Positions 6,110 through 36,065 of a stretch of 55,186 nt of DNA are shown here, in pieces; the stretch's first letter is position 1; the number at the start of each line of letters is the position of its first letter. Origin of the DNA: Candidatus Fermentibacteraceae bacterium (lineage in GTDB: Bacteria; Fermentibacterota; Fermentibacteria; Fermentibacterales; JCC-6); assembly GCA_030592635.1 (NCBI GenBank), contig JAUVIS010000001.1, positions 1-55,186 of the forward strand. The letters are read 5' to 3'. A program made the position numbers and the translations under genes. A model generated the notes under the pieces. The model had not been told where the DNA came from. It did no database searches and worked only from the letters and a program-made list of their open reading frames with translations.

Positions 6110-8437
6110 TTACTCCCAGACAATTTCGTCCGGGTTGAGGAAAAGTCCCTGTTCAGGCCTGGGAATCCGATACTCTCCCTTGAGTACCGTTCCACACTCG
6201 GGGCACTCGGCCATTCCCTCGTTTACAACCGAGTCGCAGACGGGACAGATCCTCGCCAGCATTCCATCTACATAATCAACAAGTTCTTCTGCTGTGACAG
6301 CTCCATCGCTGTTGCTGTCGGCAGCTCCCCTGGATGCCTCCAGGAGGACAGGCGTAAGAATTCTCTCGCTTACGGATCTGTCTTCCCTCGCGGCGGTAAG
6401 GATAAGTATGTTGTCGCCACTGGAGAAATCGTTTACAAAACCTCCTGAATGACAGGCATCCGCAAAGAGGAACACCGAACCGGAAAAACTTCCCAGCAGC
6501 TCGTGCATTTCATCATCAGAGACATCTTCGTCATAAAAACACAGTACCTCATTCACGCCATCGGCTTCCTCGGCTCCGCCTGAACCCGGAGATTCCTGAG
6601 ATCCGTGACCGCTGTAGAAAATAATCAGGCGATCTTCCGAATCGGCTCTGCGGGTAATGTCATCTACAGCATTTCTGAATGCGTCAGCCGTTGCCTCCGC
6701 GTCCACAAGAAGCACAATGCGGTTCGAGTCCACATTCTGCTCATCCCGGAGAAACCGGTAAAAATCAATGGCATCCATACTGGCCCTTGAGAGTATATCC
6801 TCCCGGGACTCATAGCCGCTGATACCGGAAACAATCGCCCAGGTGTCCGCAGAAGCGGGATCACCGGCGGCAAGTCTTTCAGAAGGGATTCTCTCCGCTT
6901 CGATAGTGAAGGTGCCCTCGCCGCTTCTGGAGTAGGCATACACGGTAACACCGTACACCGCATCCTCCTGGCAGTACATTGTTACTGATTCATCCGCTGC
7001 GTTGTCCGCATTGCTCAGTCCACCCTGAGCTTGAAGAACATACCCCGGCCCGCTGACCAGCATATCCAGATCAAAGTCCCGCTGATCACCGCGAAGTTCA
7101 ATAACCAAGGTGCTTCCCGCTTCTCCGTGAACCGTGTAAAACTTCTGTGCTGAAGTCGTCTCATCAATCCGCCCGTGAACAAGACCAGCCACAGGCCGGG
7201 CATCGGTGGATTCCACGGATACTTCACACAACCCGCCCGTTCCGAAATTCATGAAACCTGGAGCAATCCACAGGGTATCTCCCAGCTGGGTCCAGAAGGA
7301 GAACCTCTCGTCTCCCCGTTCTGTCATCATAAATGCGGAAGGCTCACCGTAACTGTTGAACAGTCTGACATCCCCGTCCCTGAGTTTCTCAAAAATTCCC
7401 GATATGGTGTAAAAACCTGAAGAAGGAGCGATGAATCTCAGAAGAGCTGACTGCCCGAACCCTGTTTCCACATTCACAGGGCTGGACTGACCCATATCCG
7501 CAACAGATTGAACAAGGTTAAGTCTGTAGGGGAATTCCTCCAGATCATCTCCAACATCATAAGGATGAACCTCTGCGACAGCGGGAGAATCACCGGCGGA
7601 AACCAGCAGTCCCTCTGAATACAGGTAAGTCCCTGATGAGTACAGCAATTCGCCCGTTGCGTCTCTAACGATCAGGTCGAGATCTCCTTCGTTTTCGAAG
7701 GTTAACTCCAGAAGTGCCTCGCTTTGCAGTACAGGAAGTCTGTAACGCTGCACATCACCTTTAATGGCATCGGCCGTAATGGATTCGGAAAGCACATCCA
7801 TTTCGCCCGATCTCATGATTTCAAGAGTGTAATCTCCACTGCCGCCCTTGTTGTATCTGGAAACCACAATCTGCAGGCTCTCTCCCTCAAGGAGACCCAT
7901 TGAAAGCTTTTCTGTTGAATTGCCGCTGTAGCTTCCGGCCCACAGGCTGTTCCCGGCTCCATAGAGCTCAAGATCAAGATCAGAAATATCATCAGTTCCT
8001 CTGATGAGAAAATTCCATTTGCCCTCTTCATCCGCTGTGAAAGTCCATATCTCCGCCATTTCAGCGGAAGAAAGCGAAGATGAAACACCACTGTTCTCAA
8101 CAGGCTCCGATTCACGATATCTGACTGAGAATTTCACAGGATCATCACTGACGCCCTTGATCCAGAACCAGTAGTCGCTGTATGCGGACAGTATAAGCGG
8201 TTCACCGCCGGTTGAAAAAGCCAGTGGTTCCCCCGCATTGTCATAAGCAGTCATTGGAACAACGGGTGAGGACACCACCTCAATAACCGCGTAATCACTT
8301 TCCAGAATGCGAATCCACTGATAACCTTCAAATTCCGCGCTCTCTGCAGTCTCACCGGCGTTAACGCCGGGAACGATAACAGCATCCGGAAGGGTCACCG
8401 CGAGAGCGGCGACAAGCAGTACAACAACACCAGTCAA
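6110..8437 (-). CDS. Secreted or anchored multidomain caspase-family (peptidase C14-like) protein with PPC-like modules, an EF-hand-like loop and a C-terminal zinc ribbon
   Basis: There is an N-terminal hydrophobic segment. Three PPC-like modules appear (SDLDLELYG, GDLDLIVRD, RDFDLDMLV, each ending in a GxYTxEx-like strand). The caspase His/Cys dyad context is IIFYSGHGSQ ... FLFADACHSGGF. These are followed by DSNSDGAVTAEELVDY and CPVCDS...CPECGT. Confidence 0.8.
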   Translation of the reverse strand: MTGVVVLLVAALAVTLPDAVIVPGVNAGETAESAEFEGYQWIRILESDYAVIEVVSSPVVPMTAYDNAGEPLAFSTGGEPLILSAYSDYWFWIKGVSDDPVKFSVRYRESEPVENSGVSSSLSSAEMAEIWTFTADEEGKWNFLIRGTDDISDLDLELYGAGNSLWAGSYSGNSTEKLSMGLLEGESLQIVVSRYNKGGSGDYTLEIMRSGEMDVLSESITADAIKGDVQRYRLPVLQSEALLELTFENEGDLDLIVRDATGELLYSSGTYLYSEGLLVSAGDSPAVAEVHPYDVGDDLEEFPYRLNLVQSVADMGQSSPVNVETGFGQSALLRFIAPSSGFYTISGIFEKLRDGDVRLFNSYGEPSAFMMTERGDERFSFWTQLGDTLWIAPGFMNFGTGGLCEVSVESTDARPVAGLVHGRIDETTSAQKFYTVHGEAGSTLVIELRGDQRDFDLDMLVSGPGYVLQAQGGLSNADNAADESVTMYCQEDAVYGVTVYAYSRSGEGTFTIEAERIPSERLAAGDPASADTWAIVSGISGYESREDILSRASMDAIDFYRFLRDEQNVDSNRIVLLVDAEATADAFRNAVDDITRRADSEDRLIIFYSGHGSQESPGSGGAEEADGVNEVLCFYDEDVSDDEMHELLGSFSGSVFLFADACHSGGFVNDFSSGDNILILTAAREDRSVSERILTPVLLEASRGAADSNSDGAVTAEELVDYVDGMLARICPVCDSVVNEGMAECPECGTVLKGEYRIPRPEQGLFLNPDEIVWE

Positions 8438-23352: not shown

Positions 23353-26300
23353 TTATGTTCCGCAGCATCTTTTGTATTTCTTTCCACTGCCGCAGGGGCA
23401 GAGATCGTTTCTTCCAACTTTACCCTCATCCCTTTTCACTGTCTGCTGCCTGCCCTCCGCGTTCTTGCCGGCCCCGGATCGCGGGTCACCAGTCGGTGAC
23501 CTCAGTCCGGGATGAACAGCCCTTCCAGCAGGACCCTGCTGCCTCTGAATTTTAGAAGCGGGCCATAAAGATAATATCTGCCTTACTGCCTGTTTGTCAA
23601 CTCCGTCAAGCAGTTCCTCGAACATTCCGAAAGCTTCTTTTTTGTATTCAACCAGAGGATCTCTCTGTGCATAGGCCCTCAGCCCAATACCGGATTTCAA
23701 GTGATCAAGAGCGTAAAGGTGATCCCTCCACTTTGCGTCAATAGAGCTGAGAACTGACCATTTTTCCAGATCAAGAACGAGTTGATCACCAAGTTTCTCC
23801 TTCTTTTTGCCGTAGTAATCCATAACCAGTTCAACAAGCTTAAGACGCAGTTCCTCGGCGTTCGTGTATTTTTTCTCTATCCCGTCAAGTTTGAATACAG
23901 CACCCGAAATATCCCTGAGACTTACGGCCGCGCCTTCCATGTTCCATTCGTGCGGTTGAGAATCATCAGGGATAAATTCCATAAGGCCGTGCTCTGTTAC
24001 AGCCTCAATCATATCCCGTATCTCTTCCTCAAGCCCGTCTCCCGTAAGGGCCTGAAGCCGTCTCTCGTAGATGACCTCGCGCTGACGGTTGACAACATCA
24101 TCATATTCCAGAAGATGCTTTCTTATTCCAAAATGGTACTGCTCAACCCGCTTCTGAGCCTGTTCGATTGACTTGGTAAGAAGAGCGTGTTCAATTGGTT
24201 CGCCCTCTTTCTCCTGGCTCTTCTTGAGGAAATCGATAATCTTCTCGCTGGCGAAAAGTCGAAAAAGATCATCCTCGAGAGAGAGGTAAAACCTGCTTCC
24301 GCCACGATCGCCCTGTCTGCCGCTTCTTCCTCTGAGCTGACGGTCAATACGCCTGGATTCATGTCTCTCGGTACCGATCACAAAGAGACCGCCTTCCAGG
24401 TCATTTCCATCAGGAATGCTGATTTCCCTGACTTCCCCGGCAATCTTGATATCCGTGCCTCGTCCGGCCATATTGGTTGCTATGGTCACAGAACCCTTCT
24501 GACCGGCTCTGGTAATAATCTCAGCTTCCTGCTGATGATGTTTTGCGTTCAACACGCTGTGGATAATTTTTCTTCTCTTGAGGAGCTTTGACAGCAGTTC
24601 GGATACTTCAACTGAAACGGTACCCACCAGCAAAGGCTGTCCCATTGAGTGCCTTCTGGCGATCTCATCAATTATCGCCCCGTATTTTTCTCGCTTTGAA
24701 GCATACACCCGGTCATTGTGATCAACTCTGATAACCGGTCTGTTGGTGGGCACAACGGCCACATCAACATTGTAGATACTTCCGAATTCCTCGGCCTCGG
24801 TTTCCGCTGTTCCTGTCATTCCAGCAAGCTTGCTGTACATTCTGAAATAGTTCTGAATCGTGATCGTGGCCAGAGTCTGTGTTTCATTCCGAATTTCCAC
24901 ATTCTCCTTGGCCTCAAGGGCTTCGTGAAGACCATCACTGAATCTTCTACCCGGCATCGGTCTGCCCGTGAACTGATCAACTATCACCACCCGGCCTTCA
25001 TCCAGCACATACTCCACATCTTTTTCGTAGAGCTGATAGGCCTTCAGCAGTTGATCTATGTTGTGAAGGGCCTCCGCCTTTGCGGAATGACTCTCGTAAA
25101 TCTGTTTTTTCTTCTCAAGTTTTTCCTGCGCGGATAAATCCTGAACCTCAAGCTCAGCCATATCATCGCCTATGTCCGTTATAAGGAAAAAATCCGGATC
25201 TTCAGGAGAAAGCAGTTTTCTCCCCCGGTCGGAAACCGAGACGGATTTCTCCCGTTCGTCAATTGCAAAGAGCAGTCCTTCATCAAGCAGATGAATGTTC
25301 TTCTCGCGAAGTCTTTCTCCTTCAATGCGTTTTACCGCCGCAACCCTGTCAGGGTCACGCATGGCTTTAGCCAGTCGACGGTGCTTCGGAGCACCCCTTC
25401 TCGCTTTCAGGTAAAGAGTGGCGGCACCGTGGTGATCTCCGCTGCTCCACAGGTCATCGGCATCCGCGGCAATGGAGTTTACAAGCTCCACCTGCTTCCT
25501 GACCAGCCTTGCGACTATCGAACGATACTCGTTGTATCTGTTTCTGTTCCTGGCAACGGCACCGCTTATTATCAGCGGTGTTCTGGCCTCATCAATGAGA
25601 ACACTGTCAACCTCATCAACGATGGCATAGTGATAGTTACGCTGAACCCGCTGCTCCAGCCGAACAGCCATGTTGTCTCTGAGGTAGTCAAATCCGAATT
25701 CACTGTTCGTACCGTAGGTAATGTCGCAGTTGTACTGCTCCCTGCGCTGATCAGGAGTCATTCCCCCCTGAATACATCCGATGGAGAAACCCATGTACTC
25801 ATAGACAGGTCCCATCCATCTTGCATCACGCAGAGCAAGGTAATCGTTCACAGTAACCAGATGAGTTCCAGCCCCGACTGGAATGCCGTCAATGGGCTCA
25901 AAAACCCACTTACTGTAATCTTCCCCGTACTCCGGAACCGCTTTTTCCTTCCATTCCGGATTCAGCTCAAGGCCGTTGAGGTACATGGGAAGAACAGCCA
26001 CAAGAGTCTTGCCCTCTCCAGTAGCCATTTCTGTAATCATACCCCTGTGAAGAACGATACCGCCCTTGAGCTGAACATCGTAAGGCACCATGTTCCACTC
26101 TGCCGGATGACCGCTCACATCCCAGCTCACCCCGAGGTTCCTTCTGCATACTTCCTTTACAACAGCGAAGGCTTCGGGAAGAAGATCATCCAGCGTCTCG
26201 CCCTGAAGAAGCCTTATCCTGAACTCCGGTGTCTTGTTCTTGAGTTCTTCATCGGAAATAGATTCCAGTTGCTGACAGTTGCTGTTGATCTGATCCACCA

Positions 26301-26376
26301 GAGGCTCAAGGCTTTTCATCAGCTTGGCCTGGCTGTCACCCAGCAGTTTCTTAAACAGTTTTCCAATCTTTCCCAT
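23353..26376 (-). CDS. secA: Preprotein translocase ATPase SecA
   Basis: DEAD-like motor motifs (MATGEGKTLVA, VDEVDSVLIDEARTPLIISG, TNMAGRGTDI) and the C-terminal zinc motif CPCGSGKKYKRCCG. The start ATG at 26376 follows GGAGGA (MGKIGKLFKKLLG). The ORF track extends 7 codons further. Confidence 0.97.
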   Translation of the reverse strand: MGKIGKLFKKLLGDSQAKLMKSLEPLVDQINSNCQQLESISDEELKNKTPEFRIRLLQGETLDDLLPEAFAVVKEVCRRNLGVSWDVSGHPAEWNMVPYDVQLKGGIVLHRGMITEMATGEGKTLVAVLPMYLNGLELNPEWKEKAVPEYGEDYSKWVFEPIDGIPVGAGTHLVTVNDYLALRDARWMGPVYEYMGFSIGCIQGGMTPDQRREQYNCDITYGTNSEFGFDYLRDNMAVRLEQRVQRNYHYAIVDEVDSVLIDEARTPLIISGAVARNRNRYNEYRSIVARLVRKQVELVNSIAADADDLWSSGDHHGAATLYLKARRGAPKHRRLAKAMRDPDRVAAVKRIEGERLREKNIHLLDEGLLFAIDEREKSVSVSDRGRKLLSPEDPDFFLITDIGDDMAELEVQDLSAQEKLEKKKQIYESHSAKAEALHNIDQLLKAYQLYEKDVEYVLDEGRVVIVDQFTGRPMPGRRFSDGLHEALEAKENVEIRNETQTLATITIQNYFRMYSKLAGMTGTAETEAEEFGSIYNVDVAVVPTNRPVIRVDHNDRVYASKREKYGAIIDEIARRHSMGQPLLVGTVSVEVSELLSKLLKRRKIIHSVLNAKHHQQEAEIITRAGQKGSVTIATNMAGRGTDIKIAGEVREISIPDGNDLEGGLFVIGTERHESRRIDRQLRGRSGRQGDRGGSRFYLSLEDDLFRLFASEKIIDFLKKSQEKEGEPIEHALLTKSIEQAQKRVEQYHFGIRKHLLEYDDVVNRQREVIYERRLQALTGDGLEEEIRDMIEAVTEHGLMEFIPDDSQPHEWNMEGAAVSLRDISGAVFKLDGIEKKYTNAEELRLKLVELVMDYYGKKKEKLGDQLVLDLEKWSVLSSIDAKWRDHLYALDHLKSGIGLRAYAQRDPLVEYKKEAFGMFEELLDGVDKQAVRQILSLWPASKIQRQQGPAGRAVHPGLRSPTGDPRSGAGKNAEGRQQTVKRDEGKVGRNDLCPCGSGKKYKRCCGT

Positions 26377-26681
26377 TAAGGAAATTCCTCCATGCATATT
26401 CCGGCCGTGACAAAACCGCCCGCGGCTGCCCCGGCCACATCCGCCGCAAGATCCCGCACCTGAAATCCGGAACCGTGCAAACCATCATAAATTTCTTTCA
26501 ACAGACCCAGACCCGCAGTAAAAACCACCGATTCTACAGGTTCAGAAGTCGAGGCAGTGGCTACAGATGAAACGGAGGCTGAGAACGCGAAGTGGTTCCA
26601 CTTGTCGGAAGCAATGACGAAACCACACCCGCATGTAAACATAACAAATACCGGGAAGCACAAGCATACAAATACTCTCAC
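26376..26681 (-). CDS. Small hydrophobic or lipoprotein-like hypothetical protein
   Basis: 101-aa ORF with a Cys-rich hydrophobic N-terminus (VFVMFTCGCGFV). It contains a DKWNHF...KEIYD...DLAADVAG pattern that I only loosely associate with YfiM/DUF2279-like proteins. It has a TAATG overlap with secA. Confidence 0.5.
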   Translation of the reverse strand: MRVFVCLCFPVFVMFTCGCGFVIASDKWNHFAFSASVSSVATASTSEPVESVVFTAGLGLLKEIYDGLHGSGFQVRDLAADVAGAAAGGFVTAGICMEEFP

Positions 26682-27514
26682 ATGGGTTCACCGTATCCTT
26701 CAGATGTGCTTGTAAACTCGTTCATCAGATCAAGCAGCGAGTCGGACTTAACCGCCCACAGGCTGTCGTTGCTCCAGAGGGCAGAGGATTCTCTAAGGGT
26801 GGGAACCGCATCCATCATACACCCGTTTCTCATGAGCTCTCGTCCGTAAAAATACAGCTTCCATCCAAGATCCGCAGCGGATGATGGAGTCCTTCTGATT
26901 TCCCATGCCCGCCGCGATGCCTCAATCGCACCACGGGAATCACCCAGAGCGTCATGAACGGATGATGCCGTCTGCCAGAATGACAAACCGCCTGAACCTG
27001 TCTCCTTGAGTATCTCGAACTGAGCTGCTGCGATCTCCAGCTTACCGTCATCAATTAATTTATCAATGAGCAGACTCCTGTAGAATTCCACTTCCGGCAT
27101 AAGCTCGACAGACCTTTCGATATACCGGAGTCCGGCATCCCCGTACAATATTGAAAGCCAGCAACCGGCATCAGCTGCAACTGAGTCAATCCCGCTCTCA
27201 AAAGAATTCTCAAGCCAGTCAAAAGATGGCTTTTCCGGAAGATCAAGTTCGATTTCAGCCCTGGCCAGTCTGTACCTGCAGGTTCCGCCACCGGCGACAA
27301 GGTATGAATATTCAAGAATCGTCTCCGGTTGGCTGGCAAGTGATTTCAGCAGTTCAGTCAGGCATCTTTCGCTTGCGGGCTGAATGCGGAGAGCTTTTCC
27401 TGCATACAATCCAGCTGAATCGGGAAGATCAAGAAGATTGTAACACCATGCAGCACGGTAAAATGACCACCAGTTGGAAGGCTGCGCTTCCGACTGCTGG
27501 CGGTAGCTGCTCAC
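26678..27514 (-). CDS. Hypothetical helical-repeat (TPR-like) protein
   Basis: 278-aa ORF from the GTG at 27514. The frame stays open for a further 27 codons upstream with a signal-peptide-like hydrophobic stretch but no canonical start (see findings). Confidence 0.6.
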   Translation of the reverse strand: MSSYRQQSEAQPSNWWSFYRAAWCYNLLDLPDSAGLYAGKALRIQPASERCLTELLKSLASQPETILEYSYLVAGGGTCRYRLARAEIELDLPEKPSFDWLENSFESGIDSVAADAGCWLSILYGDAGLRYIERSVELMPEVEFYRSLLIDKLIDDGKLEIAAAQFEILKETGSGGLSFWQTASSVHDALGDSRGAIEASRRAWEIRRTPSSAADLGWKLYFYGRELMRNGCMMDAVPTLRESSALWSNDSLWAVKSDSLLDLMNEFTSTSEGYGEPM

Positions 27515-27595
27515 TGCATCAAGGATGTTACCCGACTGAACCAGAGAATCACCCCTGGAAAATGAAAGCAGAAAAAGAAAACAGAGTGTAGCCGT

Positions 27596-27991
27596 CTAGA
27601 ACCCTCCGAAATTCAGATTTCTTTCGGGCAGAACGCCGCGGTAGGTAACAGAGAATAAAGAATTCTCTGAAGGTCTCCAGTTCAACTGAAACCCTCCGAG
27701 TATCCGTCCTGTCTCCTCACCGCCGGAGAACATCATCAGCCGGGAATAACCCATTTCAACAACAGCATCAACATCCGGGTGCAGAGAGAATCTCATACTG
27801 CCCAGATAGGTTCCCTCTCCCGCAGAACCGTACTGCCCCGATGAGAAAGAGAAGCTTGCCATGCTGCTGAACTCCGGGCTGAAGCCCGAAGCGTAGTCCG
27901 GATAGCCCACCAGGCTGAAACCCGAAGGTTCAAGACCGAAAGCAGATGCTCCCAGAACAATTACAAACAAAACCAGAAAGCTGTTTTTCAT
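27596..27991 (-). CDS. Small secreted beta-rich protein (outer-membrane-protein-like, C-terminal Phe)
   Basis: Signal peptide MKNSFLVLFVIVLGASAFG. It has alternating hydrophobic beta-strand patterns and ends in ...NLNFGGF. Confidence 0.6.
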   Translation of the reverse strand: MKNSFLVLFVIVLGASAFGLEPSGFSLVGYPDYASGFSPEFSSMASFSFSSGQYGSAGEGTYLGSMRFSLHPDVDAVVEMGYSRLMMFSGGEETGRILGGFQLNWRPSENSLFSVTYRGVLPERNLNFGGF

Positions 27992-28042
27992 TGAAGGAAC
28001 CTCCCCGTTGTGTATGGTATATTACCTATACAAACCGGGACA

Positions 28043-28059
28043 GTCAATGTTCCATTGAC
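28043..28059 (+). promoter_or_regulatory. Perfect 7-3-7 palindrome immediately upstream of the RiPP operon SD (possible operator)
   Basis: GTCAATG-ttc-CATTGAC at 28043-28059, followed directly by GGGAG (28060-28064) and the ATG at 28070. Confidence 0.3.
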
Positions 28060-28069
28060 GGGAGCAGAC

Positions 28070-28324
28070 ATGGCAAAGCTTGAATATGCCAGAGGTGTGG
28101 TGTTCAGAAGAGAACCCGCAGGCGGCATTCTTTTTAACATCGATACAGGAAATCTCCAGGTAACCGAAGGAGTTGCCTTCGGCATCTGCGATATGATAGA
28201 CAACGGAAAAGACAGAGAAAGCATTCTTCTGGAATTGCGGAATCACTACCCGGCGGAAGAGAATCTGGAAGAAGATCTTGATGATTTTGTCAGAGAACTC
28301 AGGGAAAAAGGTGCTCTGGCTTGA
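28070..28324 (+). CDS. PqqD-family peptide-binding protein (RiPP recognition element)
   Basis: 84 aa. FRREPAGGILFNIDTGNLQVTEGVAFGICDMIDNGKDRESILLELRNHYP..EEDLDDFVRELREKGAL matches the PqqD pattern. The ATG follows a GGGAG SD. The stop overlaps the next start. Confidence 0.8.
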   Translation: MAKLEYARGVVFRREPAGGILFNIDTGNLQVTEGVAFGICDMIDNGKDRESILLELRNHYPAEENLEEDLDDFVRELREKGALA

Positions 28325-29370
28325 GTACTCCCTACTGGGTTTCTCCCCGGGAAGCCAACCTGCTTATTACAGGCGGGTGCAACCTTCGATGCAGACACTG
28401 CTCCGTGACCAGTCACGGTGACCTGGATACCGACCTTCCTCTTTCCATGTGGATAGATATCCTGGATGAACTCAAGAGGAGTAAGCTTATCAAACTCACC
28501 ATTACAGGCGGAGAACCCCTGTACAGACCGGATTTTCATGAGTTTCTAGCAGAGGTTTACAAAAGACCTTTCAGGTACTCTATCAATACCAATGGAACTC
28601 TGATAACACCGTCTATCATTGAAACGGTAAAAAAATATTCATCCAGACTCAATGATGTTATGGTCAGTCTTGATGGCCCCGATGCGAAGACCTTTGACAG
28701 TCAGAGGGGTGAAGGCGTTTTTGAGAAAATGGTTATGGGTGTAAAAATGCTCAAAACGGCAAAACTCCCCTTCGGCTTCTACTGTACGGTAACAAGTCTC
28801 AATGTGGAAAAACTGAACGAAACAGCCGGGTTCGCTCTTTCTCTTGGCGCCCACTGGATAAAATTCAACAATTTTCTCCTTGCGGGTCCAGCCCTCAACA
28901 GCTCTATGATTCCGGAGCCTGCCGAAGTCATTAATGCCACCGAAAAGCTCAGCATTCTCGCGGGAAAGCATCCGGACAAAATTCAGGGCACCATTCTTGA
29001 TATTCGTGAAAGAGCGCTTGAATACAAGAACGGCAAACTCAGCAGAACAAAGGGCAGAGCTTATTCATGCGGTGCCGGTAAAGGCAAAATTGCAATTTTC
29101 CCCGATGGAAGAGTCACTCCCTGCGACCATCTTCCTGATTTAACCCTGGGCAACATCACCATTCAGTCGCTTGAAGATATTGTCACGGGAAAAGAAATGA
29201 AAAAATTCTCAGAATTTATGGATCAGTCCCGAGAAGACTATCCTCAATGTAAAAACTGCCGGTACATCAGTTACTGCAGTGGAGGCTGTCCTGTTGAGCC
29301 ACTGAGCAGAAACGATAAAATCGGTTTTGACAGACACTCCTGCCTGAAAGTCGCACTGGGAGAACAATGA
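28321..29370 (+). CDS. Radical SAM/SPASM domain peptide maturase 1
   Basis: CNLRCRHC (CxxxCxxC) near the N-terminus and GGEPL. The C-terminal SPASM Cys set is SCGAGKGKIAIFPDGRVTPC ... CKNCRYISYCSGGCP ... HSC. TTG start with a 4-nt overlap with the PqqD-like gene. Confidence 0.9.
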   Translation: MSTPYWVSPREANLLITGGCNLRCRHCSVTSHGDLDTDLPLSMWIDILDELKRSKLIKLTITGGEPLYRPDFHEFLAEVYKRPFRYSINTNGTLITPSIIETVKKYSSRLNDVMVSLDGPDAKTFDSQRGEGVFEKMVMGVKMLKTAKLPFGFYCTVTSLNVEKLNETAGFALSLGAHWIKFNNFLLAGPALNSSMIPEPAEVINATEKLSILAGKHPDKIQGTILDIRERALEYKNGKLSRTKGRAYSCGAGKGKIAIFPDGRVTPCDHLPDLTLGNITIQSLEDIVTGKEMKKFSEFMDQSREDYPQCKNCRYISYCSGGCPVEPLSRNDKIGFDRHSCLKVALGEQ

Positions 29371-30404
29371 CATCACAACTTCCAACCCCGCGCGTTCTCT
29401 ATATCAATCCAGCCGACGGCTGTAATCTTCACTGCAAGCACTGCTGGGTGAATGAAGGCTCACGAACTGGAAAACTTCTCTCTCTGGAACAGTGGAAAGA
29501 TCTGCTTACTCAGGCAAAAGCACTGGGTGCCGGGTATGTAAAGCTCACTGGAGGAGAGCCCTTACTCTACAAAGATATCGTTCCTCTGTACCGATTCACC
29601 GCGGATATCTTTCCCCAGGTTGCCATTGAGACAAATGGAACACTTCAACCTGATGGCTTGTGGGAGACTTTCCTCAACAAGAAGCCGTTTCACGTATCAG
29701 TAAGCATTGACAGCGCCAACCCGGATATTCATGATGAATTCAGAGGGGGAACTGATGCCTGGAAAAAAACTGTAGCATTCGCAAAAAAACTGGTTGAACA
29801 CGGGATTAACAATCAGGTGATAATGTCAATAGCGGATTTAAGGAGACAACCTGTTAAAGATATGGCCAGGCTGGTTGAAAAGCTGGGAGTTTCCACGCTG
29901 AAAATTAATTTCATTATTCCGTCGGGCCGTGGAAAAAACAATAATTTTTCCCGGAACAGCCCTATCAAAGAAATTCTGGATTTTATAGCCTGGATCCATG
30001 AAGAGATGCCGGACTGGGTGCTGCCATCAGTTCCGGCCGCCCTTCTTCCTGTAAATCACCTGAAGAAACTTGGCTACTGTCCTGTGAGAAATCTCATGGG
30101 TGTTCTTCCCGATGGCATCTTTTCTCTATGCGGAGTAGCATTCTCAAGGAAAGATATGGCATGGGGAAAATTCCCGGAAACCTCTGTACAGGAAGCATGG
30201 GAAAACTCACCTGTTTACAGAATGATCAGGTCTTCTGTTCCCGGGCATCTTGAAGGGGTGTGCCGCAGGTGCATGCATAAAAACTCATGCGCGGGCAGAT
30301 GCGTGGTGAATAATCTGGAAACGGGTGGATCCATTACCAGCCCTGATATTCTCTGCCAGAGAGCATATGACGCCGGCCTTTTCCCGGAAACAAGGCTGCT
30401 GTGA
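29367..30404 (+). CDS. Radical SAM/SPASM domain peptide maturase 2
   Basis: CNLHCKHC cluster and GGEPL. C-terminal Cys-rich auxiliary-cluster region YCPVRN...LCGVAF...CRRCMHKNSCAGRC...LCQ. ATGA overlap with maturase 1. Confidence 0.9.
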   Translation: MTSQLPTPRVLYINPADGCNLHCKHCWVNEGSRTGKLLSLEQWKDLLTQAKALGAGYVKLTGGEPLLYKDIVPLYRFTADIFPQVAIETNGTLQPDGLWETFLNKKPFHVSVSIDSANPDIHDEFRGGTDAWKKTVAFAKKLVEHGINNQVIMSIADLRRQPVKDMARLVEKLGVSTLKINFIIPSGRGKNNNFSRNSPIKEILDFIAWIHEEMPDWVLPSVPAALLPVNHLKKLGYCPVRNLMGVLPDGIFSLCGVAFSRKDMAWGKFPETSVQEAWENSPVYRMIRSSVPGHLEGVCRRCMHKNSCAGRCVVNNLETGGSITSPDILCQRAYDAGLFPETRLL

Positions 30405-30934
30405 AAGAGGAGCAGAGATTCCTTTTCAGAGCGCAGACCAGAGCGGTTCTGCCACGGGGGGTAGTTCTCCACGGCTCCTCAGTTGAGCAGCATGGAAATG
30501 CTGTTGTTTTCCTGGCACCCTCCGGTGGAGGAAAATCCACTATCGCGATCAATCTGGCGCAAAAGGACTTTTTCCTTCTCGCGGATGACACGATCATTGT
30601 TGCCGACGGCAGTGATGAGATTACAAGATGTCTTCCCTGCGGGACTTTGAAACTCACAACCGGTATTGATAATATTCGCCCGGCAAACTTGAAAGCCTTC
30701 ATATTTCTTGAGAAGGGCGACCGGACTGCTCTTGTAAAACTGACCTGGGAATACGCCACATACAGGGCAATCAGAACAGAATCAATAATCGCTGTTCCTG
30801 ATCTGCATGTAAAGGAAAGGGAACAGGTAAGACTGTACCTTAAGAGGTTGTTCAAAGCATTTCCATCCTTCATCCTGAGATACTCCCTGAGAACTGACCC
30901 GTCAGAATTCATCAGGGAGTTATTGCAGAGTTGA
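30401..30934 (+). CDS. HPr kinase/phosphorylase-like P-loop protein (C-terminal-domain type)
   Basis: LHGSSVEQHGNAVVFLAPSGGGKSTIAINLAQKDFFLLADDTIIV parallels the HprK catalytic-domain pattern (LHG..V...G.GVL..G.SG.GKS..AL.L...GH.L.ADD). It overlaps the stop of maturase 2. Confidence 0.7.
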   Translation: MKEEQRFLFRAQTRAVLPRGVVLHGSSVEQHGNAVVFLAPSGGGKSTIAINLAQKDFFLLADDTIIVADGSDEITRCLPCGTLKLTTGIDNIRPANLKAFIFLEKGDRTALVKLTWEYATYRAIRTESIIAVPDLHVKEREQVRLYLKRLFKAFPSFILRYSLRTDPSEFIRELLQS

Positions 30935-30938
30935 TCTT

Positions 30939-31325
30939 TTGATCAGGGGGTGGGTAAAGGGTTTCTCCATGTTTCCGAATCTGATACCCGGTGACATTCT
31001 TTCCGCAACAGAAATCAAAGCTTTTGATCTTCGACCCGGCATGATAACAGTTTTCCGTGATGAGGATGGGAAAAACCCTGTTGTCCACAGGGTAAGATGT
31101 ATCAGGAACTTAAACAGTGAGCTGCTTATTGCAACAGCAGGAGACAACTCCGGAAATGATGCGCGTGTGAGAAGAATTGCTGTTGATTGTTCTGTTACTG
31201 TTGTGAGCGGGGTATTGAGGAAGGGAAGGTACAGAAAGATTACTCATTTTACTCCGGTAAGTCCGCTCAATCGAAGGCTCGTAATGCGGGTTTACCGTTT
31301 TGTTGTCAAATTTTTCTTCTGGTAG
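30939..31325 (+). CDS. S24/S26-family Ser peptidase, SipW/Sec11-like (S26B) motif set, no N-terminal membrane anchor
   Basis: GFSMFPNLIPGDIL (Ser box), VVHRV (His box) and TAGDNSGND (GDN box). The TTG start lies 4 nt after the previous stop, and the upstream frame has no alternative canonical start. Confidence 0.7.
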   Translation: MIRGWVKGFSMFPNLIPGDILSATEIKAFDLRPGMITVFRDEDGKNPVVHRVRCIRNLNSELLIATAGDNSGNDARVRRIAVDCSVTVVSGVLRKGRYRKITHFTPVSPLNRRLVMRVYRFVVKFFFW

Positions 31326-31350
31326 TATTATTGTGCGCGGAGGTAAAGTA

Positions 31351-31608
31351 ATGATTTTTTTTCCGAACGAATACGCAAAGCCCAGGCTGCTGGGCATTGT
31401 TGAAGCATCAGAATTCGGGTGGGGCGCTGTCTGTTCTATTGGCAATGATGCCGCTGGGGGTGGCAGCGTGTGCTCAACTGGTAATGGAGCCGGAAAAACC
31501 ACTCCAATCTGTGTTGGAGGCGGTTCCGCCGCAAAAGGCGATGTTTACCGCAGGACTTCCGATTCTGAAAGACTGTTTAATGTAGACGACATGAGTCACG
31601 GTCTTTAG
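31351..31608 (+). CDS. Candidate RiPP precursor peptide, copy 1 (85 aa, Cys/Gly-rich)
   Basis: GGAGG SD 7 nt before the ATG at 31351. The product is MIFFPNEYAKPRLLGIVEASEFGWGAVCSIGNDAAGGGSVCSTGNGAGKTTPICVGGGSAAKGDVYRRTSDSERLFNVDDMSHGL. Its substitution pattern against copy 2 is dominated by synonymous third-position changes in this frame. Confidence 0.7.
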   Translation: MIFFPNEYAKPRLLGIVEASEFGWGAVCSIGNDAAGGGSVCSTGNGAGKTTPICVGGGSAAKGDVYRRTSDSERLFNVDDMSHGL

Positions 31609-31778
31609 ATCGGGTTCTTCTCTTTAAAACAGCCAGAGCGCCCAGTCCGGGAAACACACTGAGCCGGGAGAGCTATTCTGCTCTTTACGGGAAGTGCCCG
31701 ATCAAAGCCGGGAGAACCATACCAACGAACATTATAGTGCGGATTTGCCGTTTCGTTGTCAAATTTCTCTTCCGGTAG
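31609..31778. pseudogene. Relics of both flanking genes between the two precursor copies
   Basis: 31609-31672 matches 32065-32128, the 3' end of the membrane gene. 31675-31720 matches 32565-32611, an internal piece of the same gene. About 31722-31778 matches 31268-31325, the 3' end of the peptidase gene including its TAG. Confidence 0.6.
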
Positions 31779-31803
31779 TATTATTGTTTGTGGAGGTACT
31801 GTA

Positions 31804-32064
31804 ATGAGTTTTTTCCCGGATAAATACACGAAACCTGAGTTGCTGAGCATTGTTGAGGCTTCAGAGTTCGGGTGGGGTGCTGTTTGTTCACTTGGCAATG
31901 ATGCCGCTGAGGGTGGCAGCGTGTGCTCAACTGGTAATGGAGCCGGAAAAACCACTCCAATTTGTCTTGGAGGCGGTTCGGCGTCGGGCAAAGGCGATGT
32001 TTACTACAGAACTGCCGATTCTGAAAGGCTGTTTAATGTGGACGACATGAGTCACGGTCTTTAG
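31804..32064 (+). CDS. Candidate RiPP precursor peptide, copy 2 (86 aa)
   Basis: GGAGG SD 7 nt before the ATG at 31804. The product is MSFFPDKYTKPELLSIVEASEFGWGAVCSLGNDAAEGGSVCSTGNGAGKTTPICLGGGSASGKGDVYYRTADSERLFNVDDMSHGL. Confidence 0.7.
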   Translation: MSFFPDKYTKPELLSIVEASEFGWGAVCSLGNDAAEGGSVCSTGNGAGKTTPICLGGGSASGKGDVYYRTADSERLFNVDDMSHGL

Positions 32065-32065
32065 A

Positions 32066-32983
32066 TCATGCTCTTTTCTTTAAAACAGCCAGTGCGCCCA
32101 GACCGAGAAATACACTGAACCAGAGAGTGGCGAACCTCATCAGCAGGGTTGTCACTGTTGCTGTGGCTGCCGGAAGGTAGTCGCATAATATCCCGTCGAT
32201 TGTCACTTCTGTTAATCCAAGTCCACCGGGTATCATTGATACCGCGCCTGCCACGCTGCCCGCGGCGTGTGATAAAAGGGCTGCGCCCGGTGGAAGGCTG
32301 TAACCCATGGAGGCTGCCACCACGCACAGTACAAGCGCCTCTATTCCCCATGATATCATGCCGATGGGTACAGATACCGCGAGACTCTCTGCGTCCAGGA
32401 GGGTCATTGCCGCGTTTCTGAAATCATCAAACAGGTGCTTTCTTTTCTCAAGGAATGGAATTTTGTGAGCTATCTTTGAGAAAAGGTTCCAGGCCCGTCT
32501 GTTCATAAGGACAAACATTGCCAGTGCGACAAATACCGCTCCGGCGGCAGCGGCTGGAAGAGCGATTCTGCTCTTTACGAGAAGTGCCCCGATCAAAGCC
32601 AGGAGTACCATGCTTATCAGGTCTGTAAGCCTCTCGGCGACCACAATGGAACTTGTTTTCTCGATTGGAATTCCCCTTCGGCTTTTAAGAAGACTGCATT
32701 TGATGAGTTCACCCATTTTACCGGGGGAAACAGTCATGGAAAAGCCCGCGATAAACACCAGGAAACTCTCCTTCAGCGGCACCTTCTCTTTTACTCTGTG
32801 AAGAAAGTACTGCCACTTGATAAACCTGATCCCGTAGTTGAGCAGTGGAAGGATAAGAAAAAACGGTATCCACTTCGGATTAATGGAGTCCGCTGCTGAA
32901 ATTACCTTCCGTATATCTGAGTGGAGTACAAGAACCGTGTAAAGGACAATGGCGATAACAATGCCCCATATGGCCTTCTTCAT
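32066..32983 (-). CDS. Polytopic membrane protein, UPF0104 / LPG-synthase-TM (flippase-like) family
   Basis: 305 aa with about 8 hydrophobic segments. The N-terminal pattern (KKAIWGIVIAIVLYTVLV...IRFIKWQYFL) and overall layout are recalled as typical of the flippase-like domain family. It is convergent with precursor copy 2, with 1 nt between the stops. Confidence 0.75.
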   Translation of the reverse strand: MKKAIWGIVIAIVLYTVLVLHSDIRKVISAADSINPKWIPFFLILPLLNYGIRFIKWQYFLHRVKEKVPLKESFLVFIAGFSMTVSPGKMGELIKCSLLKSRRGIPIEKTSSIVVAERLTDLISMVLLALIGALLVKSRIALPAAAAGAVFVALAMFVLMNRRAWNLFSKIAHKIPFLEKRKHLFDDFRNAAMTLLDAESLAVSVPIGMISWGIEALVLCVVAASMGYSLPPGAALLSHAAGSVAGAVSMIPGGLGLTEVTIDGILCDYLPAATATVTTLLMRFATLWFSVFLGLGALAVLKKRA

Positions 32984-32986
32984 AAC

Positions 32987-33787
32987 TCAGATCTTTACCT
33001 TTTCGCCGACTATCGCCAGGAGTTCCTGCTGAAGCTTCTCTGTGCCCGGCTGCTTGTCCAGCGTCTTCAGTGCCTTTGTTGCAAGTCTCTTTGCTTCACC
33101 GTTATCCTTGAGTTTAACTGAGCATCTTGCGGCAAGACCAAAAGCCTGGGCTTTGCCCATTCTGGTTATTGGAGTATCAGGAAGCAACTCTGCCGAAGTC
33201 ATGGCACTGGCTCTGGCTCTGGAATACTCTTTACGCTTCATGTGAAGCATGGCAAGGTTGAGATAGACCCCGCTTTTCCCGGCGCCCTCTCGCTGTTCAA
33301 GAGCTTCCTCCAGAAGTTGTTCCGCCTCATCAAGCCTCTCATTCATATTGATGAGAAGACCGGCGAGATTGACCTTCATTGTTCCTTCAAGCTTCGGATC
33401 TTTTTCCATGGCCTGTCTGTAAAACTTTTCCGCGTTTTCGTTCTGCCCTTTCTGCTGGGCAATGTAAGCCATCTGAGCCAGTGCGGTTCCGCTGCTGTCT
33501 CCGGCATCCATGGCTTCCACAACAATCTTCCCGGCTTTCTCTGTCGCTCCGCTTCGAATAAAGTAGAAAACCAGAGCATTGGTCAACGGGCAGGCAACAC
33601 TCTTCCTGTTCCTGTTCACCTCAAGATAGTCTATCATGTCCTGAACATTTCCCCCGGCAGCCATTTTAGCCGCTTTCTGAAGCTGTCTCTGTTTCCAGAC
33701 GGGAGATTTAAGCAGTCTGTATCCGAGAAAAACTGCTGCTGCCAGGCAGACCCCGACTACCGCAAAAAGAAGATTTTCCATTCCCAT
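32987..33787 (-). CDS. Membrane-anchored TPR repeat protein
   Basis: N-terminal TM segment (LLFAVVGVCLAAAVFLGY) followed by TPR-like repeats (AQMAYIAQQKGQNENAEKFYRQAMEKDP...). Confidence 0.75.
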   Translation of the reverse strand: MGMENLLFAVVGVCLAAAVFLGYRLLKSPVWKQRQLQKAAKMAAGGNVQDMIDYLEVNRNRKSVACPLTNALVFYFIRSGATEKAGKIVVEAMDAGDSSGTALAQMAYIAQQKGQNENAEKFYRQAMEKDPKLEGTMKVNLAGLLINMNERLDEAEQLLEEALEQREGAGKSGVYLNLAMLHMKRKEYSRARASAMTSAELLPDTPITRMGKAQAFGLAARCSVKLKDNGEAKRLATKALKTLDKQPGTEKLQQELLAIVGEKVKI

Positions 33788-33854
33788 ACTAATAGTGTCC
33801 TGTCATGTGTGAAGTGGTACATAATTGGAAAGTCAGTTGATGCCTGACTGGATG

Positions 33855-36065
33855 CTAATTCCCTCCCTGACCAAAGTTTTTATCGAATTCGTTGAATTCA
33901 CCAAGGGTTGTATCTGCAGCTAAACCTGTACTGTCCGTGTGAAGCTCACATACGGTGGCAGGTGCGGTTCCTTTCCAGAACATTTCACTCCTTGAATGCT
34001 CGGCGCATGCGGCGCTGGCAAGCTGCCCTGTGACCCTGCAGATAATAACTTCCTCAATCTCATCCGGTTCGGGCCCGGGAAACTCGGGAGCCATGGAGGC
34101 ATCAGCATCAGCAAAAGCTCTACGCATGAAGCTGTTCCATACCGGCAGGGCAATGCTGCTTCCGGACTGTCCCCGCCCGTTCTTCAATCTCATTCTTACA
34201 ATATGGTTATCGTATCCAACCCACACTGATGTAACCAGATCCGGGGTAAATCCAACGAACCAGGCATCGGCATAATCACTCGTGGTTCCGGTTTTCCCGC
34301 CGGCTTCTCTGCCAGCGAAAGGTCCTCCCCAGTACCAGTGAGCGCCCGTTGCCGTACCGGCCCTCAGTACGGACTGAAGCATACTGTTCATAAGGTAAGC
34401 TCCTGTGACACTGAGAACTCTTCTGCCGGGATCCGGCTGCTCATTGCTCTCCAGAAGATTACCGTACCTGTCCTCAACCTTTAGAATGGCTGTTGAGTTC
34501 CTCGCAATACCTCCAGTGGCAAAAGGTATGTATGCGCGAGCCATCTCAAGAGGATTGGCCATGCAGCTGCCCAGTGGAAGTGAATGAACAATGGGAAGCC
34601 GTGAGCTTATTCCCATCGCAGTGGCTCTTGCGGCTCCTGTTTCAATACCTACCGCATTTCCAAGTCTGACTGCGCTCACATTAAAAGACCTTGCAAGTGC
34701 TTCTCTGAGTGTAACCATCCCGTGGAATTCTCTATCGTAGTTTCTGGGGCGCCATGATCCAGGATTCAGCTCAACAACTACAGGTTGATCCAGAATGACA
34801 CTTCCGGGAGACCAGCCCTGCTCTATCGCCTCAGCATAGAAAAAAGGTTTAAATGAACTTCCCGGCTGCCGTCTTGATTGTGTCGCTCTGTTGAATTCGC
34901 TGTCCTGGAAATCCCTGCCTCCAACCATGGCCTTGATGTAACCAGTGGTGGGATCAATAGCCACCAGAGCGCCCTGAATGTAGTTGGGAGCTCCGGAAGT
35001 GGTATCTTTAACCGCCTGCCAGTGAACCCATGAACTCTCAAATCTGAGTCTTTCTTCATTCTGTAACCAGCTGTCTGTGACTGGATCCCATACCGGTTCT
35101 TTCTCCGTCAGTATACTGTCAATGGCCAGCCTGGCGCTCTCCTGTAAGTGCGGGTCCAGGGTTGTGTATACTTCCAGACCCTGTTCATAAACTGCGGACC
35201 ATCCGTACCTGCCAACCAGGTACTGTCTTACATACTCCGTAAAGTAATCCCAGTCCTGCTCAAGCTCATACCTGTGAACATCCACGCCCAGAGGAAGTTC
35301 AGAGGTTTCCTCTTTCTGCTCAGCAGTTATTACTCCAAAATCCTCCATCATAAACAGAGCGAGATTCCTCTGAAAAAGACATCTCTCCGGATTGCGAAGC
35401 GGATTGAAGCCACTGGGATTCTTTACCATTCTCACCAGCATAGCTGACTGGGAAAGGGTCAATTCCTCTGCCGCGATTCCACCGAAATAAGTCCTGGCGG
35501 CGGCTTCTATACCATGAGCGCCTGAACCGAAGTATATCTGGTTCAGATACATCTCCATTATTTCGTCTTTGCTGAACTGCCTTTCAATCTCCATGGCGAT
35601 GAATGCTTCCTGAAGCTTTCGCTGAAAGGTCTGGTCCTGAACAAGGAAGAGTCCCCTGGCAAGCTGCTGTGTAATGGTACTTCCACCGTGTTTGTCACCG
35701 CTTCGGAGGTTATGAAGCATGGATCGGCCTATACCCTGAAGATCCACTCCCCCGTGGGCATAGAAATTCCTGTCCTCCGTGGCTACAAATCCTCTGATTA
35801 CCCAGGGACTCACCTGATCGAGAGTCACAGGATATCTGTTTTCAACAAAAGCTGTGGCCAGTTGATTTCCGTAACAGTCGTATATCCTTGTGGCGCTTAC
35901 CGGTTCGCTGCCGCGGAGCCCCGCTACCAGAAGGTTTCCTCTGGCCTGACGGAAGGCCACAGCACTGTCATTCCACACCCGGTAAAGAAAACCCGCGCTG
36001 AAGGAAGCCCCCACTATCGCAGTGACAACAAGCCAGTAAACGGCGGCGGTAAAAACTTTTTTCAT
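33855..36065 (-). CDS. mrcA: Bifunctional penicillin-binding protein 1A family (GT51 transglycosylase + transpeptidase)
   Basis: GT51 motifs EDRNFYAHGGVD and GGSTITQQLAR. Transpeptidase motifs SSFKPF (SxxK), SFN and KTGTT. Confidence 0.93.
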   Translation of the reverse strand: MKKVFTAAVYWLVVTAIVGASFSAGFLYRVWNDSAVAFRQARGNLLVAGLRGSEPVSATRIYDCYGNQLATAFVENRYPVTLDQVSPWVIRGFVATEDRNFYAHGGVDLQGIGRSMLHNLRSGDKHGGSTITQQLARGLFLVQDQTFQRKLQEAFIAMEIERQFSKDEIMEMYLNQIYFGSGAHGIEAAARTYFGGIAAEELTLSQSAMLVRMVKNPSGFNPLRNPERCLFQRNLALFMMEDFGVITAEQKEETSELPLGVDVHRYELEQDWDYFTEYVRQYLVGRYGWSAVYEQGLEVYTTLDPHLQESARLAIDSILTEKEPVWDPVTDSWLQNEERLRFESSWVHWQAVKDTTSGAPNYIQGALVAIDPTTGYIKAMVGGRDFQDSEFNRATQSRRQPGSSFKPFFYAEAIEQGWSPGSVILDQPVVVELNPGSWRPRNYDREFHGMVTLREALARSFNVSAVRLGNAVGIETGAARATAMGISSRLPIVHSLPLGSCMANPLEMARAYIPFATGGIARNSTAILKVEDRYGNLLESNEQPDPGRRVLSVTGAYLMNSMLQSVLRAGTATGAHWYWGGPFAGREAGGKTGTTSDYADAWFVGFTPDLVTSVWVGYDNHIVRMRLKNGRGQSGSSIALPVWNSFMRRAFADADASMAPEFPGPEPDEIEEVIICRVTGQLASAACAEHSRSEMFWKGTAPATVCELHTDSTGLAADTTLGEFNEFDKNFGQGGN

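Follow-up and report, generated by a model that had tools for sequence, protein, structure and literature searches.

The stretch of DNA analysed here (hereafter the window) is a 55,186-nt window of contig JAUVIS010000001.1 from a Candidatus Fermentibacteraceae bacterium. Its operon at 28070-32064 probably serves to make a ribosomally made, enzyme-modified peptide (RiPP) and, within the SynChlorMet (SCM) cassettes, would form a divergent branch specific to Fermentibacteria. Seven co-directional open reading frames (ORFs) on the plus strand encode a discrete RiPP recognition element (RRE), two radical S-adenosylmethionine (rSAM) enzymes with SPASM domains, a short HprK-like P-loop protein, a small serine protease resembling signal peptidase I (SpI), and two small paralogous peptides, A and B (Table 1). 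This chain of genes had been picked out in an earlier note made from the sequence, and the short overlaps and gaps described there are indeed found as three 4-nt overlaps (TTGA, ATGA, and GTGA) and one 4-nt gap; the start of the locus had been placed at 28043, about 27 nt ahead of the ATG of the PqqD-family gene at 28070. To our knowledge, the SynChlorMet cassette has been named yet has stayed uncharacterised for more than a decade, and its curated description states that the precursor is not identified. The note had likewise known of no characterised product or precursor, and none was found in the literature searched or in NCBIfam.

The case for substrates encoded in cis begins with the two small ORFs themselves. 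Each has a strong Shine-Dalgarno sequence, as noted earlier (GGAGGT, 6 to 7 nt ahead of each ATG), and a strict regular expression for a leader plus cysteine core finds only these two ORFs in the entire window. Peptides A and B share about 85% amino acid (aa) identity (84% over the 102-aa ORFs and 85% for the called peptides), and the 19 synonymous and 14 nonsynonymous differences between their genes correspond to a dN/dS ratio of 0.19. Orthologues lie 3' of the peptidase gene at the clade loci L012-L017, L072, L006, and L010, and the alignment of 11 clade sequences has invariant F4, Y8, P11, L13, G23, W24, A26, C28, G31, C41, and C-terminal Gly (G84), together with a conserved tail of the form RL(F/I/L)(N/D)PxD(V/M)xxG(L/F). 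The modules of the window peptides (CSIGNDA, CSTGNGA, and CVGGGSA) are spaced 13 residues apart. When 1.84 billion representative proteins were searched exhaustively with phmmer, 14 relatives of 73 to 88 aa were returned, nearly all matching end to end and with the same architecture. Judged by their sequences, the small ORFs are real, conserved genes.

The opposite view, in which these ORFs are not substrates at all and instead arose by chance in a duplicated intergenic stretch or encode unrelated proteins, with the precursor elsewhere, is strongly disfavoured and has hardly any probability left. It can draw on the lack of Pfam or NCBIfam models matching the window peptides (there are none for canonical SCM peptides either), on a word-indexed protein search with precursor A that returned only the two window copies, and on the recent tandem duplication of the region, as well as on the orthologous cassette of L003/L004, which has no such ORF. 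Against this stand the low dN/dS between the copies, orthologues with invariant residues at the same position in 7/7 species-representative clade loci, the 14 full-length relatives, the recurrence of the architecture at SCM cassettes of many phyla as described below, and a leader motif that fits the type of the RRE. Conservation, purifying selection, and the leader motif thus support the proposal of the earlier note that the small ORFs are the substrates.

There are two precursor genes in the window as the result of a tandem duplication of about 455 nt whose unit consists of the precursor flanked by the 3' parts of two genes, that of the peptidase and that of a convergent flippase-like gene (32066-32983). 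Two fragments of the flippase-like gene lie between the copies, one being the C-terminus and the other residues ~135 to 146 of its product, from which it follows that an internal deletion followed or accompanied the duplication. Sigma-70-like hexamers (TTGTCA-17-TATTAT at 31303-31331 and 31756-31784) about 20 nt upstream of the precursor starts were not counted as promoters because they overlap codons for the conserved C-terminus of the peptidase (VRKLFW and stop) and are thus indistinguishable from coding constraint. A scan of 26000-34000 with Rfam gave no match.

Table 1. Features of the operon and of the duplicated precursor region (window coordinates)
Feature	Position	Strand	Details
Discrete RRE, PqqD family, 84 aa from ATG	28070-28324	+	PF05402 35.7 bits; GGGAG 7 nt upstream
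rSAM-1, ScmE-like, 349 aa	28321-29370	+	CNLRCRHC; TIGR04250 best; PF04055 + PF13186
rSAM-2, ScmF-like, 345 aa	29367-30404	+	CNLHCKHC; TIGR04251 best; PF04055 + PF13186
Short ScmC/HprK-like P-loop phosphotransferase (predicted), 177 aa	30401-30934	+	APSGGGKST...LADD; PF27840 + PF07475
Small SpI-like (archaeal/endoplasmic reticulum-type signal peptidase I) serine protease, candidate leader peptidase, 128 aa, TTG start	30939-31325	+	
Precursor peptide A, 85 aa	31351-31608	+	leader with YAKPRL; G23-W24; core of three C-x-x-G modules; C-terminal tail ...RLFNVDDMSHGL conserved
Precursor peptide B, 86 aa, paralogue of A	31804-32064	+	clade-invariant residues all kept
Flippase-like gene fragments between precursor copies	31609-31734	-	direct repeats D2-D4
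Tandem duplication, ~455 nt	31282-32121	.	31282-31665 vs 31735-32121, 84-89% identical

Similar small ORFs accompany SCM cassettes well beyond the Fermentibacteria. A scan of species-representative genomes with an ScmF alignment yielded 80 SCM-type loci, many on truncated contigs, from Desulfobacterota, Omnitrophota, Planctomycetota, Chloroflexota, Aminicenantes, Nitrospirota, Acidobacteriota, Bacteroidota, and several methanogen genera. Precursors were detected by jackhmmer seeded with seven peptides and, independently, by a regular expression, which gave 70 matches in 52/81 loci (999 kb of related loci) compared to 2 in reversed-sequence controls; these matches lie at a median distance of 18.5 nt from a cassette gene. 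With both methods combined, at least one precursor-like ORF is found in 64/80 loci, so the comparison of neighbourhoods that the earlier note had proposed does reveal similar small ORFs next to most SCM-type cassettes. The 74 peptides of 60 loci from which we drew the family signature have a basic N-terminus, a leader motif Y (93%)-E/x-K/P-P-x-(L/V/I)-x-D-L, and a core of 2 to 14 modules of the form C-x-x-G (87%)-x-x-A/P (57%) with cysteines spaced 10 to 11 residues apart. The leader Tyr and the first Cys are a median of 20 residues apart (interquartile range 19-21), and exactly 20 in the window peptides. Two to five paralogous precursor copies occur at 9/60 loci. Much longer multi-module ORFs (126 to 233 aa from stop to stop) were seen at L082 4285-3854, L046 9921-9223, and L047 7324-7701 and suggest either giant precursors or a drift of the search into low-complexity sequence.

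On balance, we lean towards the view that SCM cassettes, which occur across dozens of bacterial phyla and among methanogenic archaea, encode an undescribed RiPP class. Its substrates would be small ORFs with a lasso-type YxxPx(L/V/I) leader, a 20-residue ruler, and 2 to 14 C-x-x-G-x-x-(A/P) modules, and it would combine two rSAM/SPASM enzymes with HprK-type phosphorylation and RRE-guided SpI-like cleavage. If this holds true, the operon of the window, which packs five enzymes and two precursors into 4 kb, would be the most compact self-contained version and the best entry point for reconstitution.

The type of the RRE and the leader motif of the precursors fit each other. The PqqD-like protein proposed in the earlier note scores above the gathering score of PF05402. 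When compared to the PDB, a profile of SCM-type RREs matches TbiB1 best (2.3e-10), followed by LppB (9x8z_B, 1.4e-5), TfuB1 (3.7e-4), and PbaB1 (0.015), while its match to PqqD proper is not significant (E=0.12). D69 and the invariant F73 of the window RRE align with D70 and F74 of LppB, of which the former hydrogen-bonds the leader Tyr and the latter packs on the Pro of the YxxP motif; the Trp-binding PbaB1 has a Gln at the position matching D70. By these alignments, the window RRE is of the lasso/LppB type and carries the predicted Tyr-binding Asp signature. A natural fusion of RRE and rSAM enzyme was seen in P0060, a 454-aa ScmF-like relative with a PqqD domain fused to the maturase.

The same comparison brings in the linear polyphosphorylated peptide (LPP) clusters of Bacillota, which comprise LppS, LppB, LppK, a nucleoside triphosphate (NTP) transferase, an MsbA-like exporter, and a YxxP leader (Popov et al. 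2026, PMC13381572). In these clusters, LppS is an SpI-like leader peptidase whose cleavage requires the RRE LppB, and the HprK-like kinase LppK polyphosphorylates the core residue Ser3 (PMC13381572). The RRE, kinase-like, and peptidase module of the window appears to mirror this system by analogy: both have a discrete lasso-like RRE with an Asp-x3-Phe Tyr-binding signature, a YxxP leader, an SpI-like Ser/His/Asp peptidase, and an HprK-like kinase fold, and relatives of the window cassette further share the MsbA-like exporter and the NTP transferase. However, LPP clusters contain no radical SAM enzyme (the term is never used in PMC13381572), their leaders follow YxxPxVLxHQxIxFETxxS of which the window peptides share only YxxPxL, and their cores are not made of Cys modules. 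LPP clusters are also patchy and restricted to Bacillota, whereas the window cassette is vertically conserved, and an LppN-type NTP transferase and LppD-type exporter are absent from the window. Paeninodin-type lasso peptide clusters resemble the operon in a B1-type RRE that binds [Y/W]xxPxL and in tailoring by an HprK-like kinase and an NTP transferase, but the window operon and its flanks have no macrolactam synthetase (C) or B2 cysteine protease, the leader peptidase is of the serine SpI type, and rSAM enzymes are present.

G23-W24 of the precursors is at Y+15/Y+16, i.e., in the register of LPP cleavage (Tyr at -16) or, one residue on, in that of lasso peptides (Tyr at -17). Cleavage at or next to G23-W24 is plausible from this spacing, and V17-E18-A19|S20 and G23|W24 are possible candidates for an A-x-A signal peptidase site.

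Both rSAM enzymes match PF04055 and PF13186 and have the CNLRCRHC and CNLHCKHC clusters and SPASM regions attributed to them in the earlier note. The full seven-Cys SPASM pattern (CX2CX5CX3C included) is found in both proteins (CKNCRYISYCSGGC and CRRCMHKNSCAGRC), with CKNCRYISYCSGGC being among the seven C-terminal Cys of rSAM-1, and the CNLHCKHC motif as well as the seven SPASM Cys of rSAM-2 are invariant across 12 aligned ScmF-like proteins. Secondary NCBIfam matches of the pair include StsB, PapB, AlbA, and SkfB. The solved structures nearest to rSAM-1 are the anaerobic sulfatase-maturating enzyme (anSME), SkfB, PqqE, and CteB, at only 1e-9 to 1e-13. Orthologues of the ScmF-like protein number about 50 (40-77% identity), and all those with a named source come from Candidatus Fermentibacteria (Aegiribacteria, Sabulitectum, and Fermentibacteraceae); canonical ScmF proteins are 31-38% identical to rSAM-2.

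The likeness to SynChlorMet that the earlier note had pointed out is confirmed at the level of the family: a PqqD homologue, two PqqE-like rSAM/SPASM proteins, and ScmC are adjacent and in the same order as in SCM cassettes, ScmE (TIGR04250) and ScmF (TIGR04251) are the best NCBIfam matches of the two maturases, PF27840 matches the P-loop protein, and close orthologues are named ScmF by JGI. The YxxPxL leader, the C-x-x-G modules, and the 20-residue ruler are likewise common to the window peptides and those beside canonical cassettes. Nevertheless, we regard the window as a divergent SCM sister branch rather than an equivalog member because ScmE and ScmF are the best matches yet all equivalog cut-offs are missed: rSAM-1 reaches 168.6 bits and rSAM-2, by a wide margin over other families, 231.3 bits (cut-off 400 for each; next families at ~115 bits), and the P-loop protein 23.1 bits on TIGR04249 (ScmC; cut-off 125). 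The ScmD model TIGR04248 (cut-off 100 bits) is not among the matches of the window RRE at E<=0.01, which are only generic PqqD and lasso PqqD models. In the canonical cassette L007, ScmE scores 558 bits on TIGR04250, and ScmD itself reaches 95.4 bits on TIGR04248, below the cut-off. Calibration of TIGR04251 gives 461-607 bits for canonical ScmF, 307 for one Omnitrophota protein, and 168-247 for the window clade. Further differences from canonical cassettes are precursors with 2 to 3 modules spaced 13 apart, the invariant GW, and the conserved C-terminal tail, a shorter ScmC and peptidase, and a fixed chromosomal position in Fermentibacteria.

For the P-loop protein, the HprK likeness proposed in the earlier note is supported by the PSGGGKST...ADD pattern; its Hpr_kinase_C score is 26.1 bits, under the gathering score of 33.3, and HprK_rel_A (33.6 bits) is also below its cut-off. 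Precomputed matches to PF27840 (ScmC) and PF07475 exist nonetheless, and an AlphaFold model with a predicted local distance difference test (pLDDT) score of 91 finds HprK/P catalytic domains as the top PDB entries in a fold search (E=1e-6, TM ~0.5). No variation is seen at Walker A residues G44, K45, and T47 or at D62, which belongs to the ADD motif. The protein is thus HprK-like by its modelled fold, P-loop, and catalytic Asp, and kinase activity is predicted. Compared to canonical ScmC of ~290 aa, the window protein (~175 aa) is missing an N-terminal domain of ~120 aa.

The small Ser/His peptidase with SipW/Sec11-like boxes that the note had described can be specified as an SpI-like Ser/His/Asp enzyme: it scores 46.2 bits on TIGR02228 (archaeal-type signal peptidase I; cut-off 51.85) and aligns with SEC11A/C (E=1.5e-4) over the SMxP, HR, and GDN boxes. 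S10, M11, P13, H50, R51, G68, D69, and D74 are invariant among 11 orthologues, and the peptidase is present in 7/7 species-representative clade loci. A protein of 200 to 230 aa with the same boxes is encoded at 15/73 canonical loci, and one of them passes the TIGR02228 cut-off. These canonical SpI-like proteins (L075 3703-4365, L058, L083, L033, and others) have a C-terminal extension with RRPFRLFVDE(A/S)SLP that is absent from the short form of Fermentibacteria (~128 aa in the window). The ScmC N-terminal domain and the C-terminal extension of the peptidase have been lost together in the window clade.

Taken together, these parts would form the following pathway. The lasso/LPP-type RRE may bind the Y-x-x-P-x-L element of both precursors and present the peptide to the two RRE-less rSAM/SPASM enzymes, which would modify the C-x-x-G-x-x-A modules, with the 20-residue spacing from Tyr to the first Cys possibly setting the register as a ruler. 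Cys-derived thioether cross-links as in sactipeptides and ranthipeptides seem the most likely reaction, though this is the weakest step of the scheme. The HprK-like P-loop protein might then act on the peptide as LppK and the paeninodin kinases do and phosphorylate it, and the SpI-like peptidase would cut the leader in an RRE-dependent manner like LppS, likely at or near G23-W24. In relatives, an MsbA-like exporter and NTP_transf_5, neither of which is encoded in the window, would join the pathway.

With regard to the rSAM step, sactipeptide and ranthipeptide systems use cysteine as the thioether donor. Those of AlbA, SkfB, CteB, and PapB (freyrasin, with repeated CX3D) resemble the operon in seven-Cys rSAM/SPASM enzymes with an RRE and in Cys-containing, sometimes repetitive cores, but the window RRE is discrete instead of fused, the two rSAM enzymes are obligatorily paired, their similarity to the window enzymes is remote, no acceptor residue is identifiable, and a kinase and SpI peptidase are added. 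An LPP-type linear phosphopeptide pathway in which the rSAM pair performs tailoring without cross-links (epimerisation, anSME-like conversion of Cys to formylglycine, or formation of C-C/C-O bonds) appears improbable to us. Its LPP-like RRE, kinase, and SpI module is present, anSME is the best solved-structure match of rSAM-1, and no sequence feature marks a thioether acceptor residue. On the other hand, every module is defined by a periodic Cys, the thioether donor in the systems just named; the cores are without the C-x-(P/A)-x-R sulfatase motif, and the canonical LPP leader extension VLxHQxIxFETxxS is absent.

The cassette is stably placed in its lineage. Clade loci keep the order of PqqD, two rSAM enzymes, short ScmC (170 to 177 aa), and short peptidase (116 to 134 aa), a small ORF follows the peptidase in all examined clade loci except L003/L004, and every cassette part is held by 7/7 species-representative clade loci. 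At the majority of these loci, SecA and three small conserved genes flank the cassette at one end, and the flippase-like gene (TIGR00374), a tetratricopeptide repeat (TPR) protein, and PBP1A at the other; this synteny holds where SecA is only 55% identical. The operon has a GC content of 0.46-0.47 compared to ~0.51, but recent horizontal acquisition, considered for this lower GC, was rejected given the deep synteny. As far as gene order can tell, the locus is long-resident and vertically inherited and not a recent island, so the idea that it would be the only clearly accessory locus of the window was not confirmed.

The earlier note had further proposed that the complete system might be encoded in cis. 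Precursors and a dedicated peptidase are indeed there; however, such completeness is not unique to this locus, and the exporter and NTP transferase of relatives are absent from the window. An MsbA-like exporter and NTP_transf_5 are found beside the orthologous cassettes of L001/L012, L003/L004, and L016. In L001/L012 and L003/L004 the pair lies in genomic contexts other than the SecA slot, and in L016 (9350-12185) it replaces the flippase-like gene within the same SecA...TPR-PBP1A slot. The flippase-like (TIGR00374/MprF-type) protein could conceivably be linked to the cassette in function, an idea from gene context. Two Fermentibacteria loci, L032 and L069, hold a second, canonical-type SCM cassette with long ScmC, and the ABC exporter and NTP_transf_5 of L032 have close homologues next to the short-type cassettes in L001 and L016.

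Several observations weigh against the operon being an SCM-type RiPP pathway as proposed. The orthologous cassette of L003/L004 has no SCM-type precursor within 6 kb, both maturases fall short of their equivalog cut-offs, the sequence reveals no modification chemistry, and even the nearest characterised rSAM enzymes are distant from the window pair. No invariant Ser/Thr is available as phospho-acceptor in the precursor clade alignment, neither LPP nor canonical SCM peptides have anything that matches the conserved C-terminal tail, and single-sequence AlphaFold gave no usable model of the peptidase (pLDDT 42). The window encodes no exporter and no NTP transferase, and the fixed chromosomal position across the lineage is unusual for antimicrobial RiPPs; it may point to a physiological role.

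The last two points also favour a different product, namely an intracellular peptide-derived cofactor or metal-binding peptide (compare pyrroloquinoline quinone (PQQ), mycofactocin, methanobactin, and bufferins) in place of an exported cross-linked one, with the conserved C-terminal tail or the Cys modules as the functional end of the molecule. We consider this rather unlikely. It would suit the vertical inheritance of the slot between SecA and the flippase-like, TPR, and PBP1A genes down to 55% SecA identity, the Cys-rich core with invariant C28, G31, C41, and ...G-(L/F) C-terminus, and a PqqD/PqqE-like architecture plus peptidase that resembles mycofactocin and PQQ systems. Like these (PqqD/PqqE and MftB/MftC/MftE), the operon has a discrete PqqD-family chaperone, rSAM/SPASM enzymes, a peptidase, and stable vertical inheritance. 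Yet cofactor precursors keep their modified residues fixed, whereas the number of modules and the core sequence vary here (2 to 3 Cys in the clade, 2 to 14 across the family), and diverging precursors occur in multiple copies at 9/60 loci. MsbA-like exporters stand beside 23/73 related cassettes despite contigs that end early, the RRE is of the lasso/LPP type and not of the PqqD or MftB type, and the operon has two rSAM enzymes and a kinase.

For the RiPP pathway that we favour, the cassette type by name and the logic of RRE, kinase, and SpI peptidase from LPP were already known. New in comparison to the curated databases and the literature searched (a subscription-journal paper being possible) are the definition of the SCM precursor family, the coupling of LPP-type processing to paired rSAM/SPASM enzymes across many phyla, and the compact Fermentibacteria variant. 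That literature had no paper on SynChlorMet, TIGR04248-04251, or PF27840, and ScmC, ScmE, and ScmF appeared as unrelated acronyms only; it also contained nothing relevant on HPr kinase with radical SAM and no characterisation for Methanospirillum with SPASM or signal peptidase with radical SAM. Since the substrate family is found beside most SCM-type loci examined, its quantitative rules (leader motif, ruler length, and module consensus) make the chemistry of ScmE and ScmF directly testable, and the five enzymes and two precursors of the window are a compact set suited to heterologous reconstitution. Here rSAM/SPASM maturation would meet the logic of LPP and paeninodin, which would carry the range of SpI leader peptidases and of peptide phosphorylation beyond Bacillota, into many phyla and archaea. 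Fixed as it is beside genes of the cell envelope, the cassette of this uncultured phylum may serve some purpose other than warfare.

A few neighbouring gene sets deserve mention. Upstream of the L003/L004 cassette (1-2743 and 7559-7975), a B12-binding rSAM enzyme, a 497-aa protein, a 94-aa ORF, and a Peptidase_C39 protein look like a second RiPP set. The three divergent small genes next to the operon in the window (26376-27991, minus strand) encode a 131-aa protein with signal peptide and proteins of 278 and 101 aa; their function is unassigned, an NCBIfam scan of the 131-aa and 278-aa products gave no match, and the synteny of all three with the cassette is kept in every SecA-linked relative. 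At the canonical-type locus L009 (8243-13671), the cassette is joined by an extra HprK-like protein, a sulfotransferase, a third rSAM enzyme, and four paralogous precursor-like ORFs, a gene set that resembles the tailoring enzymes of paeninodin-type lasso clusters.

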